Source: Acidobacteriota bacterium
Lineage (GTDB): Bacteria > Acidobacteriota > Thermoanaerobaculia > Gp7-AA8
Reading direction: 5' to 3'
DNA length: 64,000 nt
Assembly: GCA_003223645.1 (NCBI GenBank)
Contig: QHVT01000014.1
Span: 38,264-102,263, forward strand
Each line of letters starts with the position of its first letter. The stretch's first letter is position 1. The notes beneath the pieces were generated by a model. That model had not been told where the DNA came from, did not search any database, and saw nothing but the letters and a program-made list of their open reading frames with translations. Position numbers and translations under genes: made by a program. Of this stretch, positions 3,617 to 59,475 are shown in pieces.

Positions 3617-4656
3617 ACGATCGCGCGCAGATACGACTGAAAGTTCTCGAATGAAAAGTACTCGAGCCGCGGCGGGATGACACGCGACGGACGGGCGAGC
3701 AATTCGCGGATCGCCGCCTCGATCTCGGCGGGGTTGGCGGGATCGACGAGGAGGCCGAGCTCTCCCTCGAGCAACGCCTCGCATCCGCCGTCGTGTTTGC
3801 TGCCGATCACCGGCACGCCCGAGGCGAGCGCTTCGAGAAACACGAAGCCGAATCCCTCGCCGCGGCTCGGCATCACGTAGACATCGGCGAGGTTGTACAG
3901 GTCCGGTTTTTCTTCTTCGGGAAAGAGGCCGGTGAAGCGGACGCGGTCGGCGATGCCGAGGCGCGCGGCTTTTTCTTCGAGGCGCGCGCGGTCGTTGCCG
4001 CCGCCGCCGATCATGTAGACGACGTCGCTCGGAAGATGCGGAAGGACTTCGAGCACTTCGTCGAATCCTTTGTAGCGTTCTTCGGACGCGAGCCGTCCGA
4101 TCGTCAGCAGCACGCGTTTTCCGTCGAGGTCGTAACGTGCAACCAGATCGTTGCGCTTCGGACGGATGCCGTAGTTCTCGGCGTGGATCGCGTTCGGGAG
4201 GAGATGCACCGGCCCGTGATATTTCGACCACGTGAGAAAACGCTCGCAGGTGATGCCGCTGATGGAGATGACGCCGGCACAGCGATGCAGCAGTCGATTT
4301 GACACTGCTTTGCGCAGGCGCTTCCACGCTTCGATGCCGTAGATCATCAGCAGCGGATGCGCCGCGATCGAGCACGCGACCGGCAGCAGGTTGACGTGGC
4401 CGCAGATTACGACGTCCGCGTTCGCGCGCCGCACCTTCGCGATCGCGCGCATGTAGTGCAGCGGCCCGCGCGCCGCGTCGGCAAGAAATGTGATTTTTGG
4501 AGGAATGTCGCGCGGCTCGCTGCGAATGACGCGCGGCACGACGATCACTTCCTCGACGTCCCCGCGCAACGCAAACGCCTCGGCGAGATCGCGGTTGTAC
4601 AGCGCGATGCCGCCGTGTCCGCCGTACGCGTCGGTGCAGAGGAGGAGGATGCGCAT
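3613..4656 (-). CDS. Glycosyltransferase family 4 (GT-B fold)
   Basis: MRILLLCTDAYGGHGGIA at the N-terminus and EGFGFVFLEALASGVPVIG (E-x7-E region). Confidence 0.88.
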   Translation of the reverse strand: MRILLLCTDAYGGHGGIALYNRDLAEAFALRGDVEEVIVVPRVIRSEPRDIPPKITFLADAARGPLHYMRAIAKVRRANADVVICGHVNLLPVACSIAAHPLLMIYGIEAWKRLRKAVSNRLLHRCAGVISISGITCERFLTWSKYHGPVHLLPNAIHAENYGIRPKRNDLVARYDLDGKRVLLTIGRLASEERYKGFDEVLEVLPHLPSDVVYMIGGGGNDRARLEEKAARLGIADRVRFTGLFPEEEKPDLYNLADVYVMPSRGEGFGFVFLEALASGVPVIGSKHDGGCEALLEGELGLLVDPANPAEIEAAIRELLARPSRVIPPRLEYFSFENFQSYLRAIV

Positions 4657-4814: not shown

Positions 4815-6563
4815 TCAGCGCAGTGCGTCGAACACGTAGTGCGCCCAGCTTCGCATGCGCGTCGACGTGCCGTCGGGCGGCAAATCCATCCACTGCCGCA
4901 TCGGCACGAAGAAGCCGGTCTTGGGGCGCTCGCGCAGCCAGCGCGGGAGCACGGCCGCGAGAGCGTCTTTGCAGGAGCTGCCGGCTTCGATGAGGAGCGG
5001 CGCGATCTGGCGGAGCAGCGCGGCGTCGACGAGCGGCGTGCGCACTTCGACGGAGTGGGCCATGCTCGCCCAGTCGGTGTCGCGCAGTAATTGATTGCGC
5101 ATGTACAGCGAGGCCTCGAGTGCGGCGATGCGTCCGTACGGAGTTCCGGGATCGGGTGTGATCGCGTTCTCGAACACGTCGAGAATCTTCAATCGATCGA
5201 GTCCGTATTCGGCTTCGTCGCGTCCGAGAATCGCGTATAGATCGGGCGGCATGTACAAGCCGCGCTGCAGCAGGTATGCGCCGGAATACGTCGCACCGTA
5301 GTTGCGCAGGAGGCGCTTTTTCGGATGTTTCGAGAATTTCGCGGCGATGCCGGCGATCGGCGTGCGCGCGAGGCGGAGCATCTTCGGGACGTTGATGAAC
5401 GAGGGATAGCCGCCGAACAGCTCGTCGCCGCCGACGCCCGACAGCGCGACTTTCACGCCGCCTTCGTGCACGGCCTTGCTGACGAACCAAGTGTTGACGC
5501 CGTCGATCGTCGGCTGGTCCATCGCCGCGAGAATCTTCGGCAGGTCGGCGTGGAACTCGTCGCGCGTGACCATGCGCGTCGTGTGAATCGTTCCGCTGTC
5601 GCGCGCGAAGCGCTCCGCGAGCGGAGCCTCGTCGCCGCTCGATCCGCGGAACTCTTCGAACGCGAGCGTGAACGTGCGCAGCGGCTCGGTCGCGATGCGC
5701 GACGCGATCGTCGTCAGCGCGGACGAGTCGATGCCGGACGAGAGGAACACGCCGACCGGCACGTCGGACACGAGATGATGCGCGACGGTTTCTTCGATGC
5801 GCTCACGTACGGCGATGTCGGGCTCGGTGAGATGCGCGATCGGACGCAGAGTGCACGCGCGCCGCAACACGCCGGCGACGGAGACGTGATGAAGGACGTC
5901 GCCGTGTCCGTGCTCTTCGTCGACGAAAAAGGAAGTTCCGGCCTCGACCGCGCGCACTTCCTTGCGAATCGTGAACGGTTCGGGAACGGATCCGGTGAGA
6001 AAAAATCCGGCCGCGCCCGCGGGATCGATCGTGCGTGAGACCGTGCCTCCGGCGAGGAGCGACTTCACCTCCGAGGCGAAGCGGATCGTTCCGCCGTCAT
6101 CGGCGAAGTAGAGCGGCTTGATGCCGTACGGATCGCGCGCGACGAACAGTCGCCGCATTCGCGTGTCCCAAATCACGAACGCGAACATCCCGCGCAACAG
6201 CCCCAACATGCGCTCGCCGTCGCGTCGATACAGCTGCAGCAGCACCTCGGTGTCGGTATGCGAATGAAACCGCGCGTTCGATCGCTCGAGTGATGCGCGC
6301 AGCTCGCGGTAGTTGTAGATCTCGCCGTTGTACGCGATCACGAGCTCGCGCTCGACGTCGAACATCGGCTGCGTGCCTTCGTCCGACAAGTCGATGATCG
6401 CGAGTCTGCGCGATCCGAGCCCCACGCGCGCGTCGGGCGAGATCCACGTGCCGCCGGCATCGGGTCCGCGCGCGCGCATCGACTCGGTGATCGCCGCGAG
6501 CTCGTTCGAGCTCACGCCATCAGCTGTCGAGCGGTAGCTGAAGATCGCGGTGATGCCGCACAT
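4815..6563 (-). CDS. asnB: Asparagine synthetase (glutamine-hydrolysing) family amidotransferase, glycan-locus type
   Basis: MCGITAIF has the Ntn nucleophile Cys2, which fixes the start. SSGIDSS is a PP-loop. 582 aa. It sits between glycosyltransferase genes. Confidence 0.88.
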   Translation of the reverse strand: MCGITAIFSYRSTADGVSSNELAAITESMRARGPDAGGTWISPDARVGLGSRRLAIIDLSDEGTQPMFDVERELVIAYNGEIYNYRELRASLERSNARFHSHTDTEVLLQLYRRDGERMLGLLRGMFAFVIWDTRMRRLFVARDPYGIKPLYFADDGGTIRFASEVKSLLAGGTVSRTIDPAGAAGFFLTGSVPEPFTIRKEVRAVEAGTSFFVDEEHGHGDVLHHVSVAGVLRRACTLRPIAHLTEPDIAVRERIEETVAHHLVSDVPVGVFLSSGIDSSALTTIASRIATEPLRTFTLAFEEFRGSSGDEAPLAERFARDSGTIHTTRMVTRDEFHADLPKILAAMDQPTIDGVNTWFVSKAVHEGGVKVALSGVGGDELFGGYPSFINVPKMLRLARTPIAGIAAKFSKHPKKRLLRNYGATYSGAYLLQRGLYMPPDLYAILGRDEAEYGLDRLKILDVFENAITPDPGTPYGRIAALEASLYMRNQLLRDTDWASMAHSVEVRTPLVDAALLRQIAPLLIEAGSSCKDALAAVLPRWLRERPKTGFFVPMRQWMDLPPDGTSTRMRSWAHYVFDALR

Positions 6564-7759: not shown

Positions 7760-9463
7760 ATGGCCGAATTGCCCGGAATCGAGCGCGAGACCCTCGAGGT
7801 CGACGTCTGTATCGTCGGCGCGGGACCTGCCGGACTCGCGGCGGCGTACAAGCTCGCCGAGCTGATTCGCGCGCACAACGAATCAGGCGCCGAGCAAAAG
7901 TTGGAAGGCATCTCGATCGCGGTGCTCGAGAAGGGGAAAGAGATCGGCTCTCACGGAATCAGCGGCGCGGTGATGGATCCGCGCGGCATCTCCGAGCTGA
8001 TGCCGGACTGGATCGAGCGCGGATGTCCGGTCGAGTCGCCGGTCACGTCCGACGCGTTCTGGTTCATGACTGAGAAGTACAAACTCGCGGCGCCGGTTAT
8101 GCCGCCGCCGCTGCGCAATCACGGCAACTACGTCGTGTCGTTGGGCGAGCTCGTTCGCTGGCTCGCGCCGATCGTCGGCGAGATGGGCGTCGATCTGTTC
8201 CCCGAATTCGCAGCGACGCGCGTGCTCACTGACAACGGACGCGTGATCGGCGTGCGCACCGGTGACAAAGGCATCGACAAGCTGGGACAGCCGAAGGCGA
8301 ACTTCGAGCCGGGCGTCGACATCAAGGCGAAGATGACGATCCTCGCCGAAGGTCCGCGCGGCACGTTGTCGAAACAGCTCGCGGGTCTCTTCAATCTGTA
8401 CGAGGGAAAAAATCCGCAGGTCTATTCGCTCGGCGTAAAGGAGCTGTGGCAGCTTCCCGACGATCGCTATCCCGCCGGCACCGTGATTCACACGATGGGA
8501 TATCCGCTCGACATGGACACGTTCGGCGGCGCGTTCATCTACGGGATGAAGGACCGCATCGTCGACATCGGACTCGTCGTCGGTCTCGACTATCGCAACC
8601 CGACGCTCGATCCGCACGACGAGCTGCAGCGACTGAAGCTGCATCCCGACATCAAGAAGATCCTGCAGGGCGGCACGATGATCTCGGCGGGCGCGAAGGC
8701 GATCCCCGAGGGCGGCTACTACTCGATGCCGCGACTCTTCGGCGACGGTTTCATGATCCTCGGCGACAGCGGAGGATTCCTCAACGGCGCGCGCTTGAAG
8801 GGAATCCATCTCGCGTTCAAGTCCGGCATCCTCGCGGCGGAGACGGCGTTTCACGCGCTGCTCAGCGGCGACTCTTCCTCCGCGCAGCTGCAGGAGTACG
8901 ACGCGCTGTTCGAGGCGTCGTGGGCGCGCGAGGAGTTGTGGTCCCAGCGAAACTTCCATCAGCCGTTCGAGAACGGAGTGCTCGCGGGACTGTTCAACGC
9001 CGGCGCGGGAATCGTCACCGGCGGCCGCGGCTACGGTGTCGCGAACAAACTCGAAGGACACGCGGGACACGAGCGGATGGAGCGCATCAAGCGCTACTAC
9101 GCGTCCGACGATCCGCATCCGCCGGCGAAGGTGAAGTACGACGGCGCGTACACGTTCGACAAAGTGACGAACGTCTACAACGGCGGCGTGATTCACGAAG
9201 AGAACCAGCCCGCGCATCTGCTCATCCTCGACACCGAGGTGTGCATCACGCGGTGTACGGAGGAGTACGGAAATCCGTGCTTCCACTTCTGTCCCGCAAA
9301 CGTCTACGAGCCGCAACCGACCGCGGACGGCCGCGGCCGCGTCCCGTTCCTCAACTTCACGAACTGCTTCCACTGCAAGACCTGCGACATCATGGATCCG
9401 TATCAGGTGATCACGTGGGTCCCGCCCGAGGGCGGGGGCGGGCCGGAGTACAAAAAGCTTTAG
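7760..9463 (+). CDS. Electron-transfer flavoprotein:ubiquinone oxidoreductase (ETF-QO)
   Basis: VCIVGAGPAGLAAA is an FAD motif. C-terminal Cys cluster (CITRCTEEYGNPC...CFHCKTCDI). Ends WVPPEGGGGPEYKKL. Confidence 0.92.
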   Translation: MAELPGIERETLEVDVCIVGAGPAGLAAAYKLAELIRAHNESGAEQKLEGISIAVLEKGKEIGSHGISGAVMDPRGISELMPDWIERGCPVESPVTSDAFWFMTEKYKLAAPVMPPPLRNHGNYVVSLGELVRWLAPIVGEMGVDLFPEFAATRVLTDNGRVIGVRTGDKGIDKLGQPKANFEPGVDIKAKMTILAEGPRGTLSKQLAGLFNLYEGKNPQVYSLGVKELWQLPDDRYPAGTVIHTMGYPLDMDTFGGAFIYGMKDRIVDIGLVVGLDYRNPTLDPHDELQRLKLHPDIKKILQGGTMISAGAKAIPEGGYYSMPRLFGDGFMILGDSGGFLNGARLKGIHLAFKSGILAAETAFHALLSGDSSSAQLQEYDALFEASWAREELWSQRNFHQPFENGVLAGLFNAGAGIVTGGRGYGVANKLEGHAGHERMERIKRYYASDDPHPPAKVKYDGAYTFDKVTNVYNGGVIHEENQPAHLLILDTEVCITRCTEEYGNPCFHFCPANVYEPQPTADGRGRVPFLNFTNCFHCKTCDIMDPYQVITWVPPEGGGGPEYKKL

Positions 9464-10555: not shown

Positions 10556-10640
10556 GGTGCTGGGTGCTGGGTGCTGAGTGCTGCGTCAGCCGAGGCTGCC
10601 GATGACCACGCAGCACGCAGCACTCAGCACGCAGCACTCC
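10556..10640. repeat. Word-built hairpin, GGTGCTGAG family, copy a
   Basis: GGTGCTGGGTGCTGGGTGCTGAGTGCTGCG...CGCAGCACGCAGCACTCAGCACGCAGCACTCC. The right arm encodes the first residues of the DUF58 ORF. Confidence 0.8.
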
Positions 10641-23336: not shown

Positions 23337-23409
23337 ACCGGTTACTCCGTTGCGCGGTTACGCGGTTACGCGGCGCTGCGCAACCGCGCGACTGCGCGAC
23401 CGAGCAACC
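23337..23409. repeat. Word-built hairpin, GCGGTTGCGC family, copy c
   Basis: CCGGTTACTCCGTTGCGCGGTTACGCGGTTACGCGG...CTGCGCAACCGCGCGACTGCGCGACCGAGCAACC. Lies in the truA-uppS spacer. Confidence 0.85.
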
Positions 23410-24119: not shown

Positions 24120-24184
24120 AGGGTGCAGAGTGCAGGGTGCTGGGTGCCGGGTTGCGCGACTCAGCACCCGGCACTCAGCACCCG
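24120..24184. repeat. Word-built hairpin, GGTGCTGAG family, copy b
   Basis: AGGGTGCAGAGTGCAGGGTGCTGGGTGCCGGGTTGCGCGACTCAGCACCCGGCACTCAGCACCCG. Fills the VWA-truA spacer. Confidence 0.85.
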
Positions 24185-24187
24185 TTT

Positions 24188-25891
24188 CTATCGCGTGTCG
24201 CGCGCGATGATCTGTTCGCGCGAAAAGCCCGACTCGTTCGAGATCTGATCGACGACGCCGATCGAGATCTTGTTCAGACCCGGCTCGGTCAGCAGCTCCA
24301 GCGTGTACGTGTAGAACTTCCCGCTGATCGTCTTCATCTGATCGTTCGGGACGTGGATCTGATGTCCCTTGCGCGCCACGTCGGACATATCGTTGTCCTT
24401 GTTCGCGACGACGACGTAGATGTCGAATCCACCGGCGTACTCGCTCTCCCCCTGCGGCAGGAGCGCGAGCTTGGCCATCGGGATCTGCACGTCGACCGGC
24501 ACTTTGAAGTAGCCGTCGCCGGTCGGGATCGCCTGTCCGAGCCGCGTAAGAATGCCGAGGTCATTCTCCTTGACGCGATAAAGCAGATTGGCGACCACGC
24601 GGTCGCTCATCTCCGCGTACACCGACTTCTCGACGAACGTCTGGCGGCTGCGGACGATGAGGTCCTTGCGATTCTTCAGCTTGACGGAGAGATAGCGCTG
24701 GCGGTCGACGCGCTCCGTACCGGCGCGATAGCCGAGGGAGTAGTACGAGTCGAGATCGCGCTGGATGCGCTGGAAGGCGGCGGCGAAATTGTTCGACTGC
24801 ACCGACGCGAGTCCGCCGGTCATGTCGGCCATCAGCTGCATCGACTCCATCGAGTTCGTGCTCGCGGCCTGCGTCACCGTCGTCGACGTCGGGTTCGAGT
24901 ATTCGGCCGACATGTCGGTGCCGCCGACGAGACCGGCCGCGTGGATCGTGTACATCGTGATGTCGTTCGCGTTCGCGGTCTTGGCGACCGACTGAATGAG
25001 ATTCGAGGCGTCGTACGACACGGTCTCGAGCATCGTCGAGCCGACGCCCCATCCCTTCGTGCGCTGCATCTCGTCGATCATGTAGAACGCTTCGCGGCCC
25101 GGCTGCATCGGGAAACCCTCACTGGTCAACACGAGGATTTTCTTTCCCTCGACGCCGGCCAGCGTCGTGAGCAGGCCGTTGAGCGACGCGACGCTCTGCC
25201 GCAGGTCGTGCTCGTTCGACGACGCGTACGAGCGCGCAATCGACATCGCGTCGTCGTAGCTTTGCGCGTCGCGGATCTGGTCCTGCACCTGCTTCCATTC
25301 ACTCTTCGCCGCGACGCCGAGGCCGGATTCCTTTGAGATCGTGTCGATCATCGAGATGATCTGATTGATGTCGCGCGTGAACGGCACGCGGATCTTCATG
25401 CTGCGGTTGTACGTCGCCATCATCGCCTCGTCGCCGGGGCGCATCACCTTCTGCACGAATTCCTTCATCTGCTGGAAGACGCGGTTGCGGTTGAACGGCG
25501 CGAGCGAGAGGTTGTCGACGTAAAAGATGATGCGGCGCTTCAGATTTTCGTTGAGCTGGTCGTTCGACGGCTCGGCGGCCGGCTGGCCCGGCACTTCGAC
25601 GGCGACGTTCTTCGCCTTCGTCCCTTCGACCTCGTAGAAGTTCGTGACGACTTTCTTCGTGCCGTTCTCGTAAACCTCGAAGTCGTCCTTGGTGAGGCCG
25701 GTGACCGGATTTCCCTTGCGGTCAGTGACGATGACGTCGACGTCGATGACGCGGATGTCGATCGACTCGACGAGCTTCGGCTGCGCCGGCTCAGGCGGAT
25801 TCTTCTGCGCGGCGAGAGGAAGGGCGACGATCGCGACGATCAGAGCGAGAGTACGTTTCACTGGTTTTTGGCCTCCGGAGCTCGGGCTCAT
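24188..25891 (-). CDS. VWA domain protein with an acidobacterial-type N-terminal module (TIGR03436-like)
   Basis: Signal peptide. IDIRVIDVDVIVTDRKGNPVTGLTKDDFEVYENG, then the VWA region RRIIFYVDNLS... Confidence 0.85.
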   Translation of the reverse strand: MSPSSGGQKPVKRTLALIVAIVALPLAAQKNPPEPAQPKLVESIDIRVIDVDVIVTDRKGNPVTGLTKDDFEVYENGTKKVVTNFYEVEGTKAKNVAVEVPGQPAAEPSNDQLNENLKRRIIFYVDNLSLAPFNRNRVFQQMKEFVQKVMRPGDEAMMATYNRSMKIRVPFTRDINQIISMIDTISKESGLGVAAKSEWKQVQDQIRDAQSYDDAMSIARSYASSNEHDLRQSVASLNGLLTTLAGVEGKKILVLTSEGFPMQPGREAFYMIDEMQRTKGWGVGSTMLETVSYDASNLIQSVAKTANANDITMYTIHAAGLVGGTDMSAEYSNPTSTTVTQAASTNSMESMQLMADMTGGLASVQSNNFAAAFQRIQRDLDSYYSLGYRAGTERVDRQRYLSVKLKNRKDLIVRSRQTFVEKSVYAEMSDRVVANLLYRVKENDLGILTRLGQAIPTGDGYFKVPVDVQIPMAKLALLPQGESEYAGGFDIYVVVANKDNDMSDVARKGHQIHVPNDQMKTISGKFYTYTLELLTEPGLNKISIGVVDQISNESGFSREQIIARDTR

Positions 25892-25962
25892 GGGCTGATA
25901 GGCTCACAGGCTCATAGTGTTCTGTTCTATGAGCCGATGAGCCTTTGAGCCTCTGCGCCTAG
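25884..25962. repeat. Word-built hairpin, GGCTCANAGG family, copy a
   Basis: GGGCTCATGGGCTGATAGGCTCACAGGCTCATAG-TGTTCTGTTC-TATGAGCCGATGAGCCTTTGAGCCTCTGCGCC. Includes the VWA start codon. Confidence 0.8.
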
Positions 25963-32769: not shown

Positions 32770-33674
32770 GGGTCGTCTCGATCGTCGTCGTCACTTGGAA
32801 CAGCGCGCGATATCTGCCGCGCTGTCTCGAAGGCATCCGCGCGCAAACGCATCGCGACCTCGAAGTGATCGCCGTCGACAACGCGTCGAGCGACGATTCC
32901 GCGTCATACTTTGATCGCGTCATCCGCAACGCCTCCAACCGCGGCTTCAGCGCGGCCGTGAATCAGGCACTCGCCGTCGCGCGCGGCGAATTCGTGCTGC
33001 TGCTCAATCCCGATTGTTTTCTCGCGCCCGACTACATCTCGCAACTGTTGCCGGTTTTTGATGATGAGCACGTCGGCTCCGCGACAGGCTTGCTGTATCG
33101 CGAGAGCGGAGACGGAGTCGACTCCGCGGGCATGCGGATGACGCGGAGCGGACGCCATCTCGACATCGCGGTCGCGCCGAAAGAACGGACGGAAGTGTTC
33201 GGAGTCAGCGGCGCGGCGGCGATGCATCGCATGTCCTTCCTGCGCGATGCCGCGATCGACGGCGAGATTTTGGACGAAGATTTCTTCGCCTATCGCGAAG
33301 ACGCCGATCTCGCCTGGCGGGGGCGTCTCTTCGGCTGGCGCGCCGTCTGCGAGCCGCGCGCGATCGCGCATCACGTGCGCCGCGTGACGCCGGAGACGCG
33401 GCGCACGTTGCCGCCTGAAGTGAACATGCATTCGGTGAAGAACCGCTTTCTGCTGCGCTTCAAAAACGAAGGCGCATACCTCGCGCTGCGCAACGCGCCG
33501 TTCGAGCTGTTTCGCGACTTCGTCGTCCTCGTTGCCGCGCTGACGATCGAGCGGACATCGCTTCCCGCATTCGCCTGGCTATGGCGCAATCATGCGCGCG
33601 TGCACGCGAAGCGCCGCGCGATTCAGCAACGCCGCAAGGTGAGCGACCGCGAGCTCGCGAGGTGGTTTCGTTGA
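32754..33674 (+). CDS. Glycosyltransferase family 2
   Basis: Part of ORF 31851..33674. VSIVVVTWNSARYLPRCLEGI, VDNASSDDS, LLNPDCFL, YREDADLAWR. The TTG 32754 start is tentative. Confidence 0.8.
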   Translation: MEAELRVVSIVVVTWNSARYLPRCLEGIRAQTHRDLEVIAVDNASSDDSASYFDRVIRNASNRGFSAAVNQALAVARGEFVLLLNPDCFLAPDYISQLLPVFDDEHVGSATGLLYRESGDGVDSAGMRMTRSGRHLDIAVAPKERTEVFGVSGAAAMHRMSFLRDAAIDGEILDEDFFAYREDADLAWRGRLFGWRAVCEPRAIAHHVRRVTPETRRTLPPEVNMHSVKNRFLLRFKNEGAYLALRNAPFELFRDFVVLVAALTIERTSLPAFAWLWRNHARVHAKRRAIQQRRKVSDRELARWFR

Positions 33675-40197: not shown

Positions 40198-40322
40198 GCG
40201 CGCACTGCACCGGAAGGCAGAAGGCAGAAGGCAGAATGAAGAAACCCGCCCTCGAATTCGACGCGGTGGGACGGGCTTCTCAATTCTGCATTCTGCCTTC
40301 TGCATTCCGGTCCCGTGCGCGT
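40198..40322. repeat. Long nested inverted repeat with GAAGGCAGAA words
   Basis: CGCGCGCACTGCACCGGAAGGCAGAAGGCAGAAGGCAGAATG...CATTCTGCCTTCTGCATTCCGGTCCCGTGCGCG, with an inner pair AGAAACCCGCCC/GGGACGGGCTTCT. Lies in the divergent recQ gap. Confidence 0.8.
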
Positions 40323-45010: not shown

Positions 45011-45442
45011 ATGCGAACCGGTTGGGACCAGTACTTCATGGGCATTGCGCACCAGGCCGCGACGCGCGCGACGTGTTTGCGCAAGCATGTCGGCGCGGTG
45101 ATCGTCCGCGACCGCACGGTGCTCTCGACCGGCTACAACGGCTCGGTGCGCGGGCTGCCGCACTGTGAAGACGTCGGCTGTGTGATGGAAGAGGGGCATT
45201 GCGTCACGACCGTGCACGCCGAGGCGAATGCGATTCTGCAGGCGGCGAAGAATGGCGTGTCGGTCGACGGCGCGGAGCTGTACACGACCGCCTCGCCGTG
45301 CTGGAACTGCTTCAAGCTGATCGCGAACGCGGGCATCCGCAAGATTTACTACGGCGAGTTTTATCGCGACGAGCGCTCGCGCGAGACGGCCGAGAAGATC
45401 GGGATCGAGTTGATCGACTTGCAGATGCCGAGCTTGAAGTAG
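45011..45442 (+). CDS. dCMP deaminase (ComEB family)
   Basis: ORF 44834..45442, start moved to ATG 45011. MRTGWDQYFMGIA, VHAEANAI, PCWNCFKLI. Confidence 0.9.
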   Translation: MRTGWDQYFMGIAHQAATRATCLRKHVGAVIVRDRTVLSTGYNGSVRGLPHCEDVGCVMEEGHCVTTVHAEANAILQAAKNGVSVDGAELYTTASPCWNCFKLIANAGIRKIYYGEFYRDERSRETAEKIGIELIDLQMPSLK

Positions 45443-45519
45443 GCTCATGGGCTCAAAGGCGCATAGGCTCACAGTTGAGAAGCCTATGCGGCTGTGCGCC
45501 CGGGAGCCTGTGAGCCTGC
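45441..45519. repeat. Word-built hairpin, GGCTCANAGG family, copy b
   Basis: AGGCTCATGGGCTCAAAGGCGCATAGGCTCACAG...CCTATGCGGCTGTGCGCCCGGGAGCCTGTGAGCCTGC. Overlaps the deaminase stop. Confidence 0.8.
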
Positions 45520-45523
45520 TTTC

Positions 45524-46123
45524 ATGATCGTCCTCGCCGCCGACACGTCTCTCCCCATCCTCTCCGTCGCATTGATCAACGACCAGACGCTCATCGGCGC
45601 GCTGGCGATGGAAGGGAAGGGATCGCGCAACGAGAAGCTGTTGCCGTCGATCGACTTTCTGCTGACGGAGAACGCGATCGACCGCGGTCAGATCGATCTC
45701 TTCGCCGTCACGCGCGGCCCCGGCTCGTTCACCGGCGTGCGCATCGGACTCGCGACGCTGCAGGGACTCGCGCTTGCGTTACGGCGGCCGGTGTGTGCGA
45801 TGTCGACGCACGAGGCGATCGCGCACGGCACGCGCGGACGCGTTGCGGTTCGCGACGACGCGGGACGCGGTGAGTTTTACGTGTCCGTCTTCGAAGACGC
45901 GCGCGAAGTCGTCGCGCCGCATCTCGCGCGCGACGTGAGCGAAGCGAACGTGATCGACGTCGCCGAGTTTCTGCAACGCGACAACGTCGCGCTGCGCTGC
46001 GCGCGGCGCGCGATGGAGATCGGCGAGAGCGATCGCGACAGCGATCGCTACAGGGACGTGACGCCGATCTATGTCCGGCTGGCCGAGGCCGAGGTCAAGC
46101 TGCGGCAGAAACAGAATGCGTAG
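45524..46123 (+). CDS. tsaB: tRNA t6A biosynthesis protein TsaB
   Basis: MIVLAADTSLPILSVAL and FAVTRGPGSFTGVRIGLA. Confidence 0.9.
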   Translation: MIVLAADTSLPILSVALINDQTLIGALAMEGKGSRNEKLLPSIDFLLTENAIDRGQIDLFAVTRGPGSFTGVRIGLATLQGLALALRRPVCAMSTHEAIAHGTRGRVAVRDDAGRGEFYVSVFEDAREVVAPHLARDVSEANVIDVAEFLQRDNVALRCARRAMEIGESDRDSDRYRDVTPIYVRLAEAEVKLRQKQNA

Positions 46124-46559
46124 CGACCTCGCGATTGCGCCGGCGGCGGGGCGCGATCTCGACGCTATCCATCGCATCGAGCGCGACTCCTTTTCCGTCC
46201 CGTGGCGGCGGCTCTTCTTCGAAAACGAGCTGGCCGCGGAGCGGCGCTTCAACCTCGTCGCGAAGCGCAGCGGAGTCATCGTCGGCTATCTGTTCGCGAT
46301 GTGGATCTTCGACGAGATGCACGTCAACAAGATCGCGGTGGCCGAGTGCGAGCGGCGGCAGGGAATCGCCGACGAGCTGATGGCGGAGTGTTTCGCCTTC
46401 GCGCGCGCGAATGAAATCCGCACGATTTCGCTCGAAGTCCGCAAGTCGAACCTCGGCGCGCAGGCGTTCTATCGCCATCTCGACTTCGAGTCCTCATACA
46501 TCCGCCCGCGCTACTACCCCGACGGCGAGGCTGCGGTCGTGATGACGAGGGTGGTCTAG
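46116..46559 (+). CDS. rimI: Ribosomal-protein-alanine N-acetyltransferase (GNAT)
   Basis: ORF 46071..46559, start moved to ATG 46116. IAVAECERRQGIADELM (GNAT motif A). Canonical tsaB-rimI pairing. Confidence 0.88.
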   Translation: MRSDLAIAPAAGRDLDAIHRIERDSFSVPWRRLFFENELAAERRFNLVAKRSGVIVGYLFAMWIFDEMHVNKIAVAECERRQGIADELMAECFAFARANEIRTISLEVRKSNLGAQAFYRHLDFESSYIRPRYYPDGEAAVVMTRVV

Positions 46560-46628
46560 TGCCGCAAGCTAGACGTGCGCTCGTACTAGATCACGCCCAC
46601 GGCTTCAGCCCATATGCCGGAAACTGGC

Positions 46629-47048
46629 GATGCGCACGTGTGAACTGCCGATCCACACATGGAAACTGACGATCCGCACGCGAGGACTGCCGATCCGCAC
46701 GCGCGGACTGCCGATCCGCACGCGCGGACTGCCGATCCGCACGCGCGAACTGCCGGTCCGCACGCGCAAACTGCCGATCCGCACGCGCGAAATGACGATC
46801 CGCACGCGCGAAATGGCGATCCGCACGCACGGAGTGGCGATCCGCACGCGTGAAATGGCAATCCGCACGCGCGGACTGGCGATCCGCACGCGTGAAATGG
46901 CAATCCGCACGCGCGGAATGGCGATCCGCACGCGTGAAATGGCAAAACGCACGCGTGAAATGGCAAAACGCAGTCGTGAAATGGCAATCCGCACGCGTGA
47001 AATGGCGATCCGCACGCGCAAACTGCCGATTCGGAACGTGCGACTTAC
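46629..47048. repeat. Tandem array of 19 good plus 1 degenerate 21-bp units (consensus GATCCGCACGCGCGGACTGCC / GATCCGCACGCGTGAAATGGC)
   Basis: Units counted directly in the sequence. The core ATCCGCACGCG is near-invariant. Units 3-7 end CGGACTGCC-like and units 11-18 end GTGAAATGGC. There are no spacers. Confidence 0.95.
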
Positions 47049-47125
47049 TCGGTATTACTGCTTTACTGCCGCGCAGGCTCCTGGCGAGTCGTGCGGTTTC
47101 AGCTCGAGAGTCCGCCTTTGCCACA

Positions 47126-47144
47126 GCGGCAGCGTCGCTGCCGC
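47126..47144 (-). terminator. Candidate stem-loop just 3' of the lipoprotein gene
   Basis: GCGGCAGCGTCGCTGCCGC is a near-perfect palindrome 11 nt downstream of the stop at 47155. No U-tract. Confidence 0.3.
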
Positions 47145-47154
47145 AGTCCAAAGG

Positions 47155-48174
47155 TTAATCGCGCCAGCGGACGACGTACGCCCGCGGACGCGCGAGCTGT
47201 TCGCGCAGCGCCGACGCAATCTCGCTCGAGCTCGATACCGGCTCCGCCTTCCGCGGCATGTTCGCGAGCTGTTCGGGCGTGGGGATGTTTTCCTGGATCA
47301 GCTGGGCCATCGGATCGGGCGAGATCCATTTTCCTTCGAGGCTCGCAACGCCCTTCAGCAGATCGACCGGCTCGATCGTCAGCCCCTTCGTGAATCCTTC
47401 CGACGAGATCGCATCGTGCGGCACGCGGACGGTGATGCGTGCGGGAAACGGATTGAAGATCAGGTCCGCCGACTCCGCGAACGTCTGCGCGCGCGCGTTC
47501 TGCTCATCCATCTTCTCCGCGATCTTCACCATCGAGTCGACGACCGCGTCGACGAGCGGCTGCTCGTCTTCGAGCACCGGCGGTTTGTCCTCGTCATTGC
47601 CGGCGATGACCGCGGCGAACACGTACTTCGCGCGGCCGGGATTGTCGTCGAGATAGCTGTAGAGATGGCGCACGGCGGTGAAGTAGCGCGCGACGTCGCG
47701 GCTCCACGCGTTCAGCTCTTCGTCGAAGCGCCGCTGCTCCTCGCGCGTCGCGCGTCCGCTCGTGCCGGGATAGATCGACAGCTCGCGCCAGCCGTCGCCG
47801 CGCACGAGGTTCATCGTAATCGACACGTCGGAGAAGACGCGCGGCAGATCGTCGGACGCGATCGTCACCGATCGCGTGACACTCTCCAGCGCGCGGTACT
47901 TGCGCTGCAGCGTCACGCGTTCGGACACCGGCGCGAGCCGTCCGAAGCGCACCGACCACTCGTCGTTGTTCGTCTGCGCTGCTTCGCGCGCCGCATCGAC
48001 GCGCTTGCGTATCTGATCGTTGGCCGGCTTCATCTCGAACGTCGTCTGCGCGGTGACGGTCACGAGATCGCTGTCGTCCGCAAACTCGATCGTGACTTCG
48101 TCCTGCACCGGAGGGCGCGTGCAGGCGACGAAGAGAAGCAGAGCGCAGAGGACGGAGGGGAGAGCGCGGCGCAT
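47155..48174 (-). CDS. Hypothetical lipoprotein (339 aa)
   Basis: Part of ORF 47155..49299, start ATG 48174. MRRALPSVLCALLLFVAC has a lipobox. TGATG overlap with the upstream permease stop. Confidence 0.75.
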   Translation of the reverse strand: MRRALPSVLCALLLFVACTRPPVQDEVTIEFADDSDLVTVTAQTTFEMKPANDQIRKRVDAAREAAQTNNDEWSVRFGRLAPVSERVTLQRKYRALESVTRSVTIASDDLPRVFSDVSITMNLVRGDGWRELSIYPGTSGRATREEQRRFDEELNAWSRDVARYFTAVRHLYSYLDDNPGRAKYVFAAVIAGNDEDKPPVLEDEQPLVDAVVDSMVKIAEKMDEQNARAQTFAESADLIFNPFPARITVRVPHDAISSEGFTKGLTIEPVDLLKGVASLEGKWISPDPMAQLIQENIPTPEQLANMPRKAEPVSSSSEIASALREQLARPRAYVVRWRD

Positions 48175-49334
48175 CAATCCTCTTTGATGGCGACGATCGG
48201 ATCGAGGTGCGAGGCGATGCGCGCGGGGTACCACGTCGCCACGACGGACAGCACGATCGCGACGATGTTCACGCCCGCGATGTCGCCCGCGTCGAGCGTG
48301 AAGGGGAGGAAGCTGATGAAGTAGACGTCGGTCGGCAGCGGGACGAGGTGATAGCGGTTCGCGGCCCAGGCCATGCCGAGTCCGGCGATGTTGCCGAGGA
48401 GCGTGCCGCCGATTCCGATGAGCAGTCCGACCTGCATGAAGAGCGAGAGGATGTTGCCCTCGGTCGCGCCGAGGGTGCGCAGGATTCCGATCGACGGTCG
48501 CTTCTCGAGGATCAGCATCGACAGCGACGAGATGAGATTCAGCGCGGCTACGAAAATGATGAGCGAAATCGACGCGAACATCACGACCTTCTCGAGGCGT
48601 AGCGCGAGGAAGAGCGGGCGGTTGATCTCCTTCCAGGTCTTGAACTGCGCCCGCGGAAACTGTTTCGCCAGCGCCGCCTGCGCTTCTTCCGATTTCAGGG
48701 CGTCGCCGTACATCTCGATCGCCGTCGGCTCCCCGTTCGTGCCGAAGAGCGACGCCGCTTCCGATTGCTCGATCCACGCATCGGTGTTGCTCTCGTCGCC
48801 GGTCGGCTGCACGAAGCGCACGATGCGGTACTTCTTCCACACCGGCACGGGCCCGAACGGCGTGAGTCGGGTGCGCGGCGCGATGATGGTGAGGCGATCG
48901 CCGAGGTCGAGGCCGAGCGAAACCGCGAATCCGCGCGTGACGCGGATCGTCGGGATGCCTGGCGCGGCGCGTTCGCCCGCGTACGAGCGAAGGCGCACGG
49001 GCTGATGCCGCCGCTGATCGTCGGTCGTGCCGTAGCCGATGCCGCTGATGAACGGACGGACGTCGCGCAACCCGAGCTTCTTCGCGGCGGCGACGATCGC
49101 GTCGGCATTCGCGATCGTGTTCTTGCCGACCGGCTCGACGAGGAGTTGCGGGCTCGATTGCATCAGCCGGATTTTGATCTGTCCCTGCAATCCGGACAGG
49201 AGCGCGATCGAGATCAGCAATGCCCAGACTCCGATCGCGAGTCCGAGCATGCTGATGATCGAGAGAAACGCCGTGTGGGCCTGCTTGCGCGCGGCCCACA
49301 AGTAACGGCGTGCGATGCGGGACTCGAGAGGCAT
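48174..49334 (-). CDS. FtsX/LolC/LolE-family ABC transporter permease
   Basis: MPLESRIARRYLWAARKQAHTAFLSIISMLGLAIGV is a typical LolC/E N-terminus. Large periplasmic loop and C-terminal FtsX domain. Confidence 0.88.
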   Translation of the reverse strand: MPLESRIARRYLWAARKQAHTAFLSIISMLGLAIGVWALLISIALLSGLQGQIKIRLMQSSPQLLVEPVGKNTIANADAIVAAAKKLGLRDVRPFISGIGYGTTDDQRRHQPVRLRSYAGERAAPGIPTIRVTRGFAVSLGLDLGDRLTIIAPRTRLTPFGPVPVWKKYRIVRFVQPTGDESNTDAWIEQSEAASLFGTNGEPTAIEMYGDALKSEEAQAALAKQFPRAQFKTWKEINRPLFLALRLEKVVMFASISLIIFVAALNLISSLSMLILEKRPSIGILRTLGATEGNILSLFMQVGLLIGIGGTLLGNIAGLGMAWAANRYHLVPLPTDVYFISFLPFTLDAGDIAGVNIVAIVLSVVATWYPARIASHLDPIVAIKED

Positions 49335-49426
49335 GGGCGCAGAGGCTCAGAGGCGCAAAGGCTCAGAGGCGCAAAGGCTCATAGGAGATCTTTGAGCCTG
49401 TGAGCCTGTGAGCCTGTGAGCCTATA
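49335..49426. repeat. Word-built hairpin, GGCTCANAGG family, copy c
   Basis: GGGCGCAGAGGCTCAGAGGCGCAAAGGCTCAGAGGCGCAAAGGCTCATAGG-AGATCTTT-GAGCCTGTGAGCCTGTGAGCCTGTGAGCCTATA. Directly abuts the permease ATG. Confidence 0.85.
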
Positions 49427-54880: not shown

Positions 54881-54987
54881 TTTGTTCGATTTTCGTGAGC
54901 CGAGGCCAGCTCATAGTTGCGATAAGATGCATGAGGATTGTTCATGAGCTGCTGGCGCCGCCCCTCCGCCATTCGGGCACGTCGCAC

Positions 54988-55045
54988 CGAGGAGAGCGGG
55001 CGTCCCGCCCGCCCCCGGAGGCGGGCAGGATGCCCGCTCTCCTCG
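54988..55045. repeat. R5 palindromic element, copy b
   Basis: CGAGGAGAGCGGGCGTCCCGCCCGCCCCCGGAGGCGGGCAGGATGCCCGCTCTCCTCG, in a divergent gap upstream of the LysR gene. Confidence 0.85.
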
Positions 55046-55113
55046 GTGCGCGGGGGAGAAGGGCGACAAACAACAAGTGTCCCGAGTGGCCGAAGGGCGG
55101 GTAAGGGGCGCTC

Positions 55114-59421: not shown

Positions 59422-59475
59422 GGCGCACAGGCTCATGGGCTCATGGTTTGTTTGTGAGCCCGTGAGCGCTTGCGG
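59421..59475. repeat. Word-built hairpin, GGCTCANAGG family, copy d
   Basis: AGGCGCACAGGCTCATGGGCTCATGG-TTTGTTT-GTGAGCCCGTGAGCGCTTGCGG. Starts at the korB stop. Confidence 0.8.

Follow-up and report, generated by a model that had tools for sequence, protein, structure and literature searches.

A 21-bp tandem array in a convergent gap of a Thermoanaerobaculia chromosome: probably the expandable middle of a small dispersed repeat element

The 64-kb window examined here, 64,000 nucleotides of contig QHVT01000014.1, is a piece of a Thermoanaerobaculia (Acidobacteriota) chromosome. It contains an array of 21-bp units, joined head to tail, that occupies a 595-bp gap between two converging genes: a RimI-like gene on the plus strand and a lipoprotein-like gene on the minus strand (Table 1). 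A preliminary description, made from the sequence alone, had placed the array in the convergent gap between rimI and a LolE operon, and the Pfam hits and gene coordinates agree. The homologs of the lipoprotein are Thermoanaerobaculia proteins, the best of them 86% identical. When all 53 candidate genes of the window are scanned with Pfam, the functions that emerge are those of an ordinary chromosome, with dxr, uppS, rseP, recQ, rnd, selA, ogt and glycosyltransferases among them, and there is no gene for a transposase, integrase, Rep, ParA/ParB or RAYT (REP-associated tyrosine transposase) in the 64 kb.

Tandem Repeats Finder (TRF) makes a single call in the window, at 46622-47030, with a period of 21, 19.5 copies, 85% matches, 0% indels and a score of 433. 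Read in register from 46629, the array resolves into 19 recognizable units and then a decayed twentieth, at 47028-47048, in keeping with the 19–20 head-to-tail units first reported. The register listing leaves no spacers between the units, and the earlier statement that this is not a CRISPR locus stands. With up to three mismatches allowed, the consensus 21-mer matches the window 16 times, every time within the array, where shuffled sequences predict 0.10 matches; the array is thus unique within the window. Counted by column, most of the variation falls at unit positions 1, 13, 15, 17 and 20. An 11-mer core, described beforehand as almost invariant, is exact in 13 units and one mismatch away in two more; the core decays in one copy found elsewhere and is replaced in another (see below). 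Twelve units begin with GATC, rather than the 14 that had been credited with it; the remaining starts are GATG, GGTC, AATC (three times), AAAA (twice) and GATT. The left half of the array consists of units of the C/G..ACTGCC type, and the right half of ..GTGAAATGGC-type units that alternate with ..GCGGAMTGGC, which gives it a local 42-bp order. These blocks and this order support the local, block-wise expansion that had been proposed. The second or ‘B’ block is not continuous, being broken by units 12 and 14.

Table 1. Positions of the array, its conserved ends and other features of the window.
Feature	Position	Strand	Remarks
Leader, conserved left end, 39 bp	46590..46628	+	From BLAST against L192 and L146; inner ~21 bp resemble a decayed unit
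Array body	46629..47027	+	19 head-to-tail 21-bp units, consensus GATCCGCACGCGCGAACTGGC; minisatellite part of the element; from TRF, register listing, uniqueness in the window and per-column variation
Tail, conserved right end, 55 bp	47028..47082	+	Decayed unit 20 (47028-47048), then ATTACTGCTTTACTGCCGCGCAGGCTCC
CTAG just outside the leader	46586..46589	.	CTAG in L146, CTAA in L192; possibly a tetranucleotide of the target site or of the terminus
CTGG at the tail boundary	47081..47084	.	Reads CTAG in L146 and L192; in both, the TAG serves as stop codon for the minus-strand gene upstream
Element-end sequences			GAGCCTGC... and ...GCGTGATC; the tail end is GAGCCTGC
GNAT (RimI-like) acetyltransferase gene	46071..46559	+	Pfam PF00583, E = 9e-18; stop 30 bp ahead of the leader; tsaB upstream
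Lipoprotein-like gene, 340 aa	47155..48177	-	No Pfam hit; stop 73 bp from the tail
LolE/FtsX-type permease gene	48174-49334	-	ATGA overlap couples the lipoprotein-like gene to the permease
GC-rich hairpin, outside the element	47114..47153	-	Directly past the lipoprotein gene stop; terminator-like stem without a U tract; inverted repeat I4
Tandem-arm hairpins	25885-25959, 45442-45516, 49336-49422, 59422-59468; also 10556-10637, 23339-23409, 24120-24181, 40213-40307		

The array has conserved ends, and these recur at other loci. A metagenome scan with three phased cores as the query returned 80 loci, and genome scans covered 596 Gb, in collections that exclude the window's own genome; fetched loci are numbered here with an L. 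Two of these, L146 (contig Ga0209468_1000009) and L192 (Ga0209468_1000011), both on large contigs from one soil metagenome, carry the leader and the tail. By BLAST, the leader matches L192 (8132-8170) at 100% identity along 39 bp and L146 (4090-4129) at 95% along 40 bp; the tail matches both at 94.5% along 55 bp (4340-4394 in L146 and 8583-8637 in L192). Outside the leader and tail, the identity between the three copies ends abruptly and the outer DNA is unrelated. The L192 copy has as its neighbors a sigma-54 activator gene and a glyoxalase-domain gene; the L146 copy has a gene of 323 aa and one that is yvcK/cofD-like. Between the ends, too, the three loci differ. The 19–20 units of the window compare with ~10 in L146, in which the ‘core’ has decayed (AATTCACAGTCG...) and GTGAAATGGC is constant, and with ~20 of mixed kinds in L192: two standard units, then ~15 units of TGTTTTCRTTTGCRACNGGCC, then three standard units. 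The foreign units, at 8213-8519, have only AACNGGC in common with the standard unit, and they keep the 21-bp register. The foreign 21-mer was seen nowhere else among the sequences examined.

In relatives, the order dCMP deaminase gene–tsaB–rimI–lipoprotein gene–lolE–TPR gene is kept, and the gap between rimI and the lipoprotein gene varies. At L111 (lipoprotein 79% identical) the two genes abut and there is no array; at L112 (67%) an 83-bp gap holds a single GC-rich, terminator-like palindrome and no array; and at L110 (86%) the contig stops 33 bp past the gene, within the same kind of palindrome as at L112. Because it is missing from the orthologous gap in these three relatives, the array is a lineage-specific addition. 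The same comparison can be made for the site of the L146 copy. There, the flanking genes lie 10–12 bp apart in relatives L195–L197 (89–90% protein identity), and other GC-rich palindromes take the place of the element in L193 and L194 (95–96% identity). Since the orthologous sites are either empty or otherwise filled, two of the three copies, those of the window and L146, are demonstrably insertions. In L193 (533-632) and L194 (34-132) the yvcK upstream spacer holds these different palindromes (GTGGAGCGGCGGCCGC...), and this spacer, which lies next to a TAG stop codon, appears to be an insertion hotspot.

The outermost positions are also alike. Five of the six element ends have CTAG or CTAA, and the sixth has CTGG. 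CTAG is scarce in the window, which contains 11 where base composition predicts ~211, an under-representation of ~19-fold, and its presence at the ends is therefore not chance; it could be a target-site duplication (YTAR/TA) or the element's own terminus. Three of the 11 window CTAGs (46556, 46569 and 46586) lie within 34 bp, from the rimI stop codon to the leader. Terminal inverted repeats are weak: the two ends agree at ~6 of 12–15 positions, and CTAGGA...TCCTAG is intact in L146 only. PMC4596501 lists IS5-type inverted repeats with starts of GAGMCC, to which the end of the tail bears a resemblance; no partner insertion sequence (IS) was seen, and for a search by termini in 1.35 Mb of sequence the pattern was too GC-generic to discriminate. 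On the reverse strand of L146, an imperfect 19-bp direct repeat, CAGCCTCCCGGCCTCCTAG / TAGCCTCCCGGCTTCCTGG, with 16 of its 19 positions matching, flanks the element on both sides; this is overlong for the usual target-site duplication.

Window-type units are found with other flanks as well, at L119/L176, at L174 and at L025, a Thermoanaerobaculia metagenome-assembled genome (MAG). In L025 an array of a very similar unit (AGTCCGCACGCGTGAATCGCG, at 4122-4142 and 4185-4415) directly adjoins a tRNA gene at its 5′ end and has a region with TTGACA downstream of it; the context is that of the promoter side, not the 3′ side. At the orthologous pair L135/L124, a related array differs in unit content between strains whose flanks are 97% identical, a turnover of the kind seen in variable-number tandem repeats (VNTRs). 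Farther afield, arrays of 21-bp period that share TCCGCACGCG turn up in Anaerolineae, Verrucomicrobia, Bacteroidota, Myxococcota and others, and we considered, and rejected, the notion that they form one cross-phylum family. Their non-core halves are unrelated, and in 30 of 35 arrays the sequence outside the searched core is no more palindromic than chance would have it, so these matches are mostly a product of the search; when 596 Gb are searched, arrays in other phyla that share a 10-mer are to be expected. Judged by their units, the arrays that may credibly be called related are only those from Thermoanaerobaculia and soil metagenomes with window-like units: L025, L119/L176, L146, L174 and L192. 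Scans of viral contigs with the units, the tail and the leader gave zero matches, and we rejected a phage origin.

Certain other matches are not arrays at all. Of the 13 from Pyrinomonadaceae/gp4, and those in two further Acidobacteriota MAGs, L061 and L068, every one lies within a single conserved coding gene (...IRTRxGKFRTRG...). In Pyrinomonadaceae this gene (...YQIIRTRxGKFRTRG...) is present at L005, L014, L019, L024, L039, L040, L051, L052, L066, L099, L100, L108 and L109, and its DNA mimics two phased array cores, a trap for pattern searches. About 3 kb from the coding false positive in L024, a Pyrinomonadaceae MAG, lies a 21-bp array for which nothing had selected (5548-5779; TTCGTCGCGACAAATGCCCCG, 11 copies, 67% matches). 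A period of 21 bp seems, then, to recur across Acidobacteriota in arrays that are unrelated in sequence.

The element thus has conserved ends, occupies differing loci, is absent from orthologous sites and has a unit content that is independent from copy to copy. It is an undescribed addition to the known class of modular, intergenic, minisatellite-bearing repeats, and we think it probable that the whole is a small dispersed repeat, non-autonomous and of the BOX or BrickBuilt kind, with the 21-bp array as the module in its middle that can expand. Its layout would be a 39-bp leader, n tandem 21-mers and a 55-bp tail, ~495 bp in all in the window. Within this Thermoanaerobaculia lineage, it would have been inserted into the convergent rimI / lipoprotein–LolE gap, with sister copies coming to rest at unrelated intergenic sites. 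After insertion, the internal minisatellite would have turned over independently in each copy, by replication slippage or unequal recombination, with blocks of units being duplicated, lost or replaced. Movement was probably in trans, by a transposase that inserts the element at sites of the CTAG or TA type, and these sites would lie mostly at stop codons in this GC-rich genome. The element probably has no locus-specific function; such effects as there might be, on 3′ untranslated region (UTR) structure during minus-strand read-through for example, would be incidental. A hypervariable minisatellite was among the alternatives offered in the preliminary description, and it comes near to what the evidence shows.

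Several observations count against this interpretation. Only three copies with both ends were found, and these may not lie in one genome: L146 and L192 come from the same metagenome, and the window's genome lies outside the collections. Convincing terminal inverted repeats are absent, and neither a clean target-site duplication nor a partner transposase was found. The same units have other flanks at L119/L176, L174 and L025, moreover, which suggests that the leader and tail may be the old, decayed edges of an array, copied along with it.

Might the array be simpler than this, a minisatellite that arose on the spot and is purely local, or an artifact of assembly, with no relation to other loci? 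The block structure and 42-bp higher-order repeats do amount to local duplication, short-read assemblies can mis-size such arrays, and the contig of the closest relative (L110) ends, as noted, just past the gene. But the same architecture is present in three independent assemblies, in two of which the leader and tail are 94–100% identical at other loci; this rules out an independent local origin. Unit diversity is also sufficient to anchor the assembly, and we regard this explanation as very improbable. A grander one, suggested by the preliminary description, is that proteins bind the array as they bind iterons or centromere-like sites. Plasmid iterons and centromere arrays (sopC and parC; P1, F and pSC101) adjoin rep or par genes, keep their binding sequence and are conserved with the replicon. 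The window array shares with these its direct repeats of ~20 bp in helical phase, but it has no rep or par neighbors, no unit sequence that is kept and no conservation at the locus. Conservation was one of the points on which, by its own account, that proposal was to be judged, and the array is missing at this locus in the three relatives; and blastn finds no match to it among the plasmids of PLSDB, so that we rejected a similarity to plasmid iterons. No rep or par gene is adjacent, the core is not kept between copies, and a plasmid iteron or partition site is not supported. For an iteron-like, centromere-like, titrating or nucleoid-organizing array that binds protein every two helical turns, the following can be said. 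The period is exactly 21 bp, with zero indels across 19 units; the units hold the near-palindrome TCCGCAC/GCGCGGA, its halves split at the center; perfect palindromes of 12–16 bp centered on CACGTG occur in related arrays (L123, L133 and L156); L192 swapped in a foreign 14-nt core and left the period unchanged; and there are other unselected 21-bp arrays at Acidobacteriota loci, such as L024. We nevertheless judge it quite unlikely. Beyond the lack of conservation, of Rep and Par genes in the 64 kb and of plasmid similarity, L146 has a decayed core beside a constant other half, and L192 has an unrelated 14-nt segment in place of the core; palindromy outside the searched core is at the chance level already mentioned; and arrays of the family tolerate indels of one base pair either way (L119, L156 and L172) that break the phasing. 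The L192 copy can also be read in a further way. The swap of its 14-nt core in ~15 units, with the period and the shared AACNGGC linker intact, may mean that what is conserved is not the sequence but the 21-bp period itself, two helical turns or seven codons, and that the units are domesticated phased modules. These could be DNA structural elements, or landing pads for nucleoid proteins, or arrays of 3′-UTR hairpins that could set mRNA 3′-end stability or insulate convergent operons, and the element that spread them would be one whose targets are CTAGs at stop codons. This reading, too, is rather unlikely.

If the array acts at all, it might instead act as RNA: read-through from the lipoprotein gene would produce a minus-strand 3′ UTR with ~20 GC-rich repeats (GGCAGUUYGCGCGUGCGGAUC), whose stable helices might serve as a 3′-end stabilizer, terminator, insulator or protein sponge. 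Folded as minus-strand RNA, the gap is far more stable than its shuffles (-333 kcal/mol, z = -10.5), whereas as plus-strand RNA it is not (-254 kcal/mol, z = -1.4). All three copies with leader and tail follow closely on the 3′ side of a gene and are oriented alike relative to it, and the L146 element sits within an operon that is tightly coupled in relatives, and so must be transcribed. On the minus strand, 90% of cells form the 5-bp hairpin of the individual unit, compared with 75.6% on the plus strand; a slid control, however, reaches 77–78%. Covariation in this hairpin is absent, with a single double-sided change among 250 cells. The stem has three variable positions: the minus strand is favored at two (U.G) and the plus strand at one (G.U), a split that resembles transitions in half of the unit rather than selection for structure. 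Without covariation, and with a wobble pattern inconsistent between the strands, we rejected a within-unit hairpin selected on one strand. Other facts also tell against a functional RNA: L192 carries ~15 units of unrelated sequence; the window-like arrays of L025 and L119 lie upstream of genes, not in 3′ UTRs; a shared orientation in three of three copies has a chance probability of 0.25; and the hairpin between the lipoprotein gene and the tail, which is present in the minimum-free-energy fold and the centroid on both strands, may halt read-through ahead of the array. Rfam 15 gives the window no match at the gathering score, and a permissive search yields only sub-threshold miRNA-hairpin families. 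On balance, we consider an RNA function unlikely. Nor does the array look like a gene. The open heptad-repeat frames listed in the preliminary description, which called them non-genic, do exist, and one of them, on the minus strand at 46591-47151, could specify a small basic protein of 186 aa, (R-Q-F-A-R-A-D)n, translated on its own or by read-through of the in-frame lipoprotein stop codon. In each of the three copies this minus-strand frame runs without a stop from the tail to the leader; the leader TGA that closes it is shared by the window and L146 (...YGLKPWA*); the window open reading frame (ORF) begins 4 nt past the stop of the upstream gene, and in frame with it; and three of the variable positions of the unit, 14, 17 and 20, fall on the third base of a codon in this frame. 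Yet there is no homolog (E <= 1e-3) among 5.8 billion predicted proteins, and no Pfam hit. The differences between units are mostly non-synonymous (Q/H, F/S, A/T, R/C and D/F); a 1-nt frameshift alters the C-terminus in L192, where the heptad is RPVANEN; in L146 and L192 the ORF and the upstream stop lie in different frames; and neither a start codon nor a ribosome-binding site is conserved. Several further frames, on either strand, are open to the same extent; this is to be expected at a GC content of 65%, and it is reported for BOX elements (PMC3049150). With zero homologs and the L192 frameshift, we rejected the coding reading, which seems to us highly improbable.

A dispersed, modular repeat would have good company among elements already described. 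Closest in layout is BrickBuilt, a minisatellite-bearing MITE (a transposable element of the miniature inverted-repeat class) from Porphyromonas gingivalis, which comprises a leader, spacer-less 23-nt repeats and a tail, and of which there are 19 intergenic copies with 1–23 units (Klein et al. 2015, PMC4596501). Both elements are intergenic and combine a leader, spacer-less tandem units of about two helical turns (23 nt in BrickBuilt and 21 nt in the window) and a tail; in both, the number of units varies between copies (from 1 to ~23 in BrickBuilt), most of the variable sites fall in one half of the unit, some copies are without leader and/or tail, and annotation pipelines can call spurious ORFs. 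They belong to different phyla, Bacteroidota and Acidobacteriota, and a sequence relationship is not expected. The BrickBuilt leader and tail are also longer, up to 285 and 318 bp against 39 and 55 bp here, and BrickBuilt has the 12-bp, IS5-type terminal inverted repeats that are weak or absent here, where the partner IS was not found. The BOX element of Streptococcus pneumoniae, boxA-(boxB)n-boxC (Croucher et al. 2011, PMC3049150), likewise has fixed ends and a middle module that can be repeated in tandem. BOX elements are enriched in convergent gaps, and long copies are open in frames of both strands (PMC3049150); they are co-transcribed with neighboring operons as UTRs, and serve as VNTR loci. 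They come from another phylum and have no sequence similarity to the element described here; boxB is 45 bp and usually present in 0–8 copies, rather than 21 bp in up to 20 copies; and boxA and boxC pair to fold the element, whereas pairing between leader and tail is not seen here.

The likeness to other families is more partial. Repetitive extragenic palindromes (REPs), the bacterial interspersed mosaic elements (BIMEs) and GTAG/CGTC-tagged palindromic repeats (Di Nocera et al. 2013, PMC3733652) are short, GC-rich near-palindromes that lie mostly downstream of genes, can cluster and have been proposed to act as RNA hairpins and on DNA topology; two related arrays, L161 and L133, start with CGTC. 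REPs are single or paired inverted units, however, not long head-to-tail arrays, and the units of the window have no GTAG/CGTC tag (they start with GATC or AATC) and a best stem of 5 bp rather than at least 8 bp. Nor does the 64-kb window contain a RAYT gene, of the IS200/IS605 type. Mycobacterial interspersed repetitive units (MIRUs), reportedly described by Supply and co-workers in 1997, have units of 46–101 bp, with small ORFs coupled to both neighboring genes. They are likewise tandem and intergenic, found at many loci, VNTR-like in behavior and oriented as the flanking genes are, and their ends overlap the stop codon of the upstream gene, as those of L146 and L192 do; the unit here is only 21 bp, and coupling to the downstream gene is not seen.

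The 21-bp array is not the only repeat in the window. Scattered through its intergenic regions are hairpins (Table 1) in which 7- or 8-mers, repeated in short tandem arrays, make up each arm, as in (GGCTCANN)n ... (NNTGAGCC)n. One family of these, with the motif TGAGCC, has four sites and 21 motif matches, against 0.38 expected, and is represented zero times among all 197 fetched loci; such hairpins could be lineage-specific terminators or a further repeat family. An 85-bp, GC-rich palindrome (GAGGAGAGCGGGCGTCCCGCCCGCC...GGCGGGCAGGATGCCCGCTCTCCTC) at 54983-55067 is matched at 89.5% identity in L146 (1497-1580), at an unrelated locus, and looks like a REP-like dispersed hairpin. That the two share it links the organism of the window to the population behind the Ga0209468 contigs. 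At 33403-33496, ARAGORN calls a tRNA-Gln (anticodon TTG) whose 94 nt make it unusually long among its bacterial counterparts.

Thermoanaerobaculia are soil Acidobacteriota, numerous and with hardly any cultured members, and in the literature searched we found no description of small repeat elements from them. Recognition of the leader–array–tail pattern removes one tempting but unsupported reading, that of a chromosomal iteron or centromere, and it explains the spurious ORFs of 130–560 aa that gene callers can place at such sites, and the contig breaks that occur there. The element offers markers of the VNTR type with which strains might be tracked in metagenomes, and its conserved ends, together with insertion next to CTAG by stop codons, provide a handle for finding the enzyme that mobilizes it. 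Should such elements turn out to affect mRNA 3′ ends, or the topology of DNA in convergent gaps, they would amount to a natural system that is compact and tunable through its number of modules.

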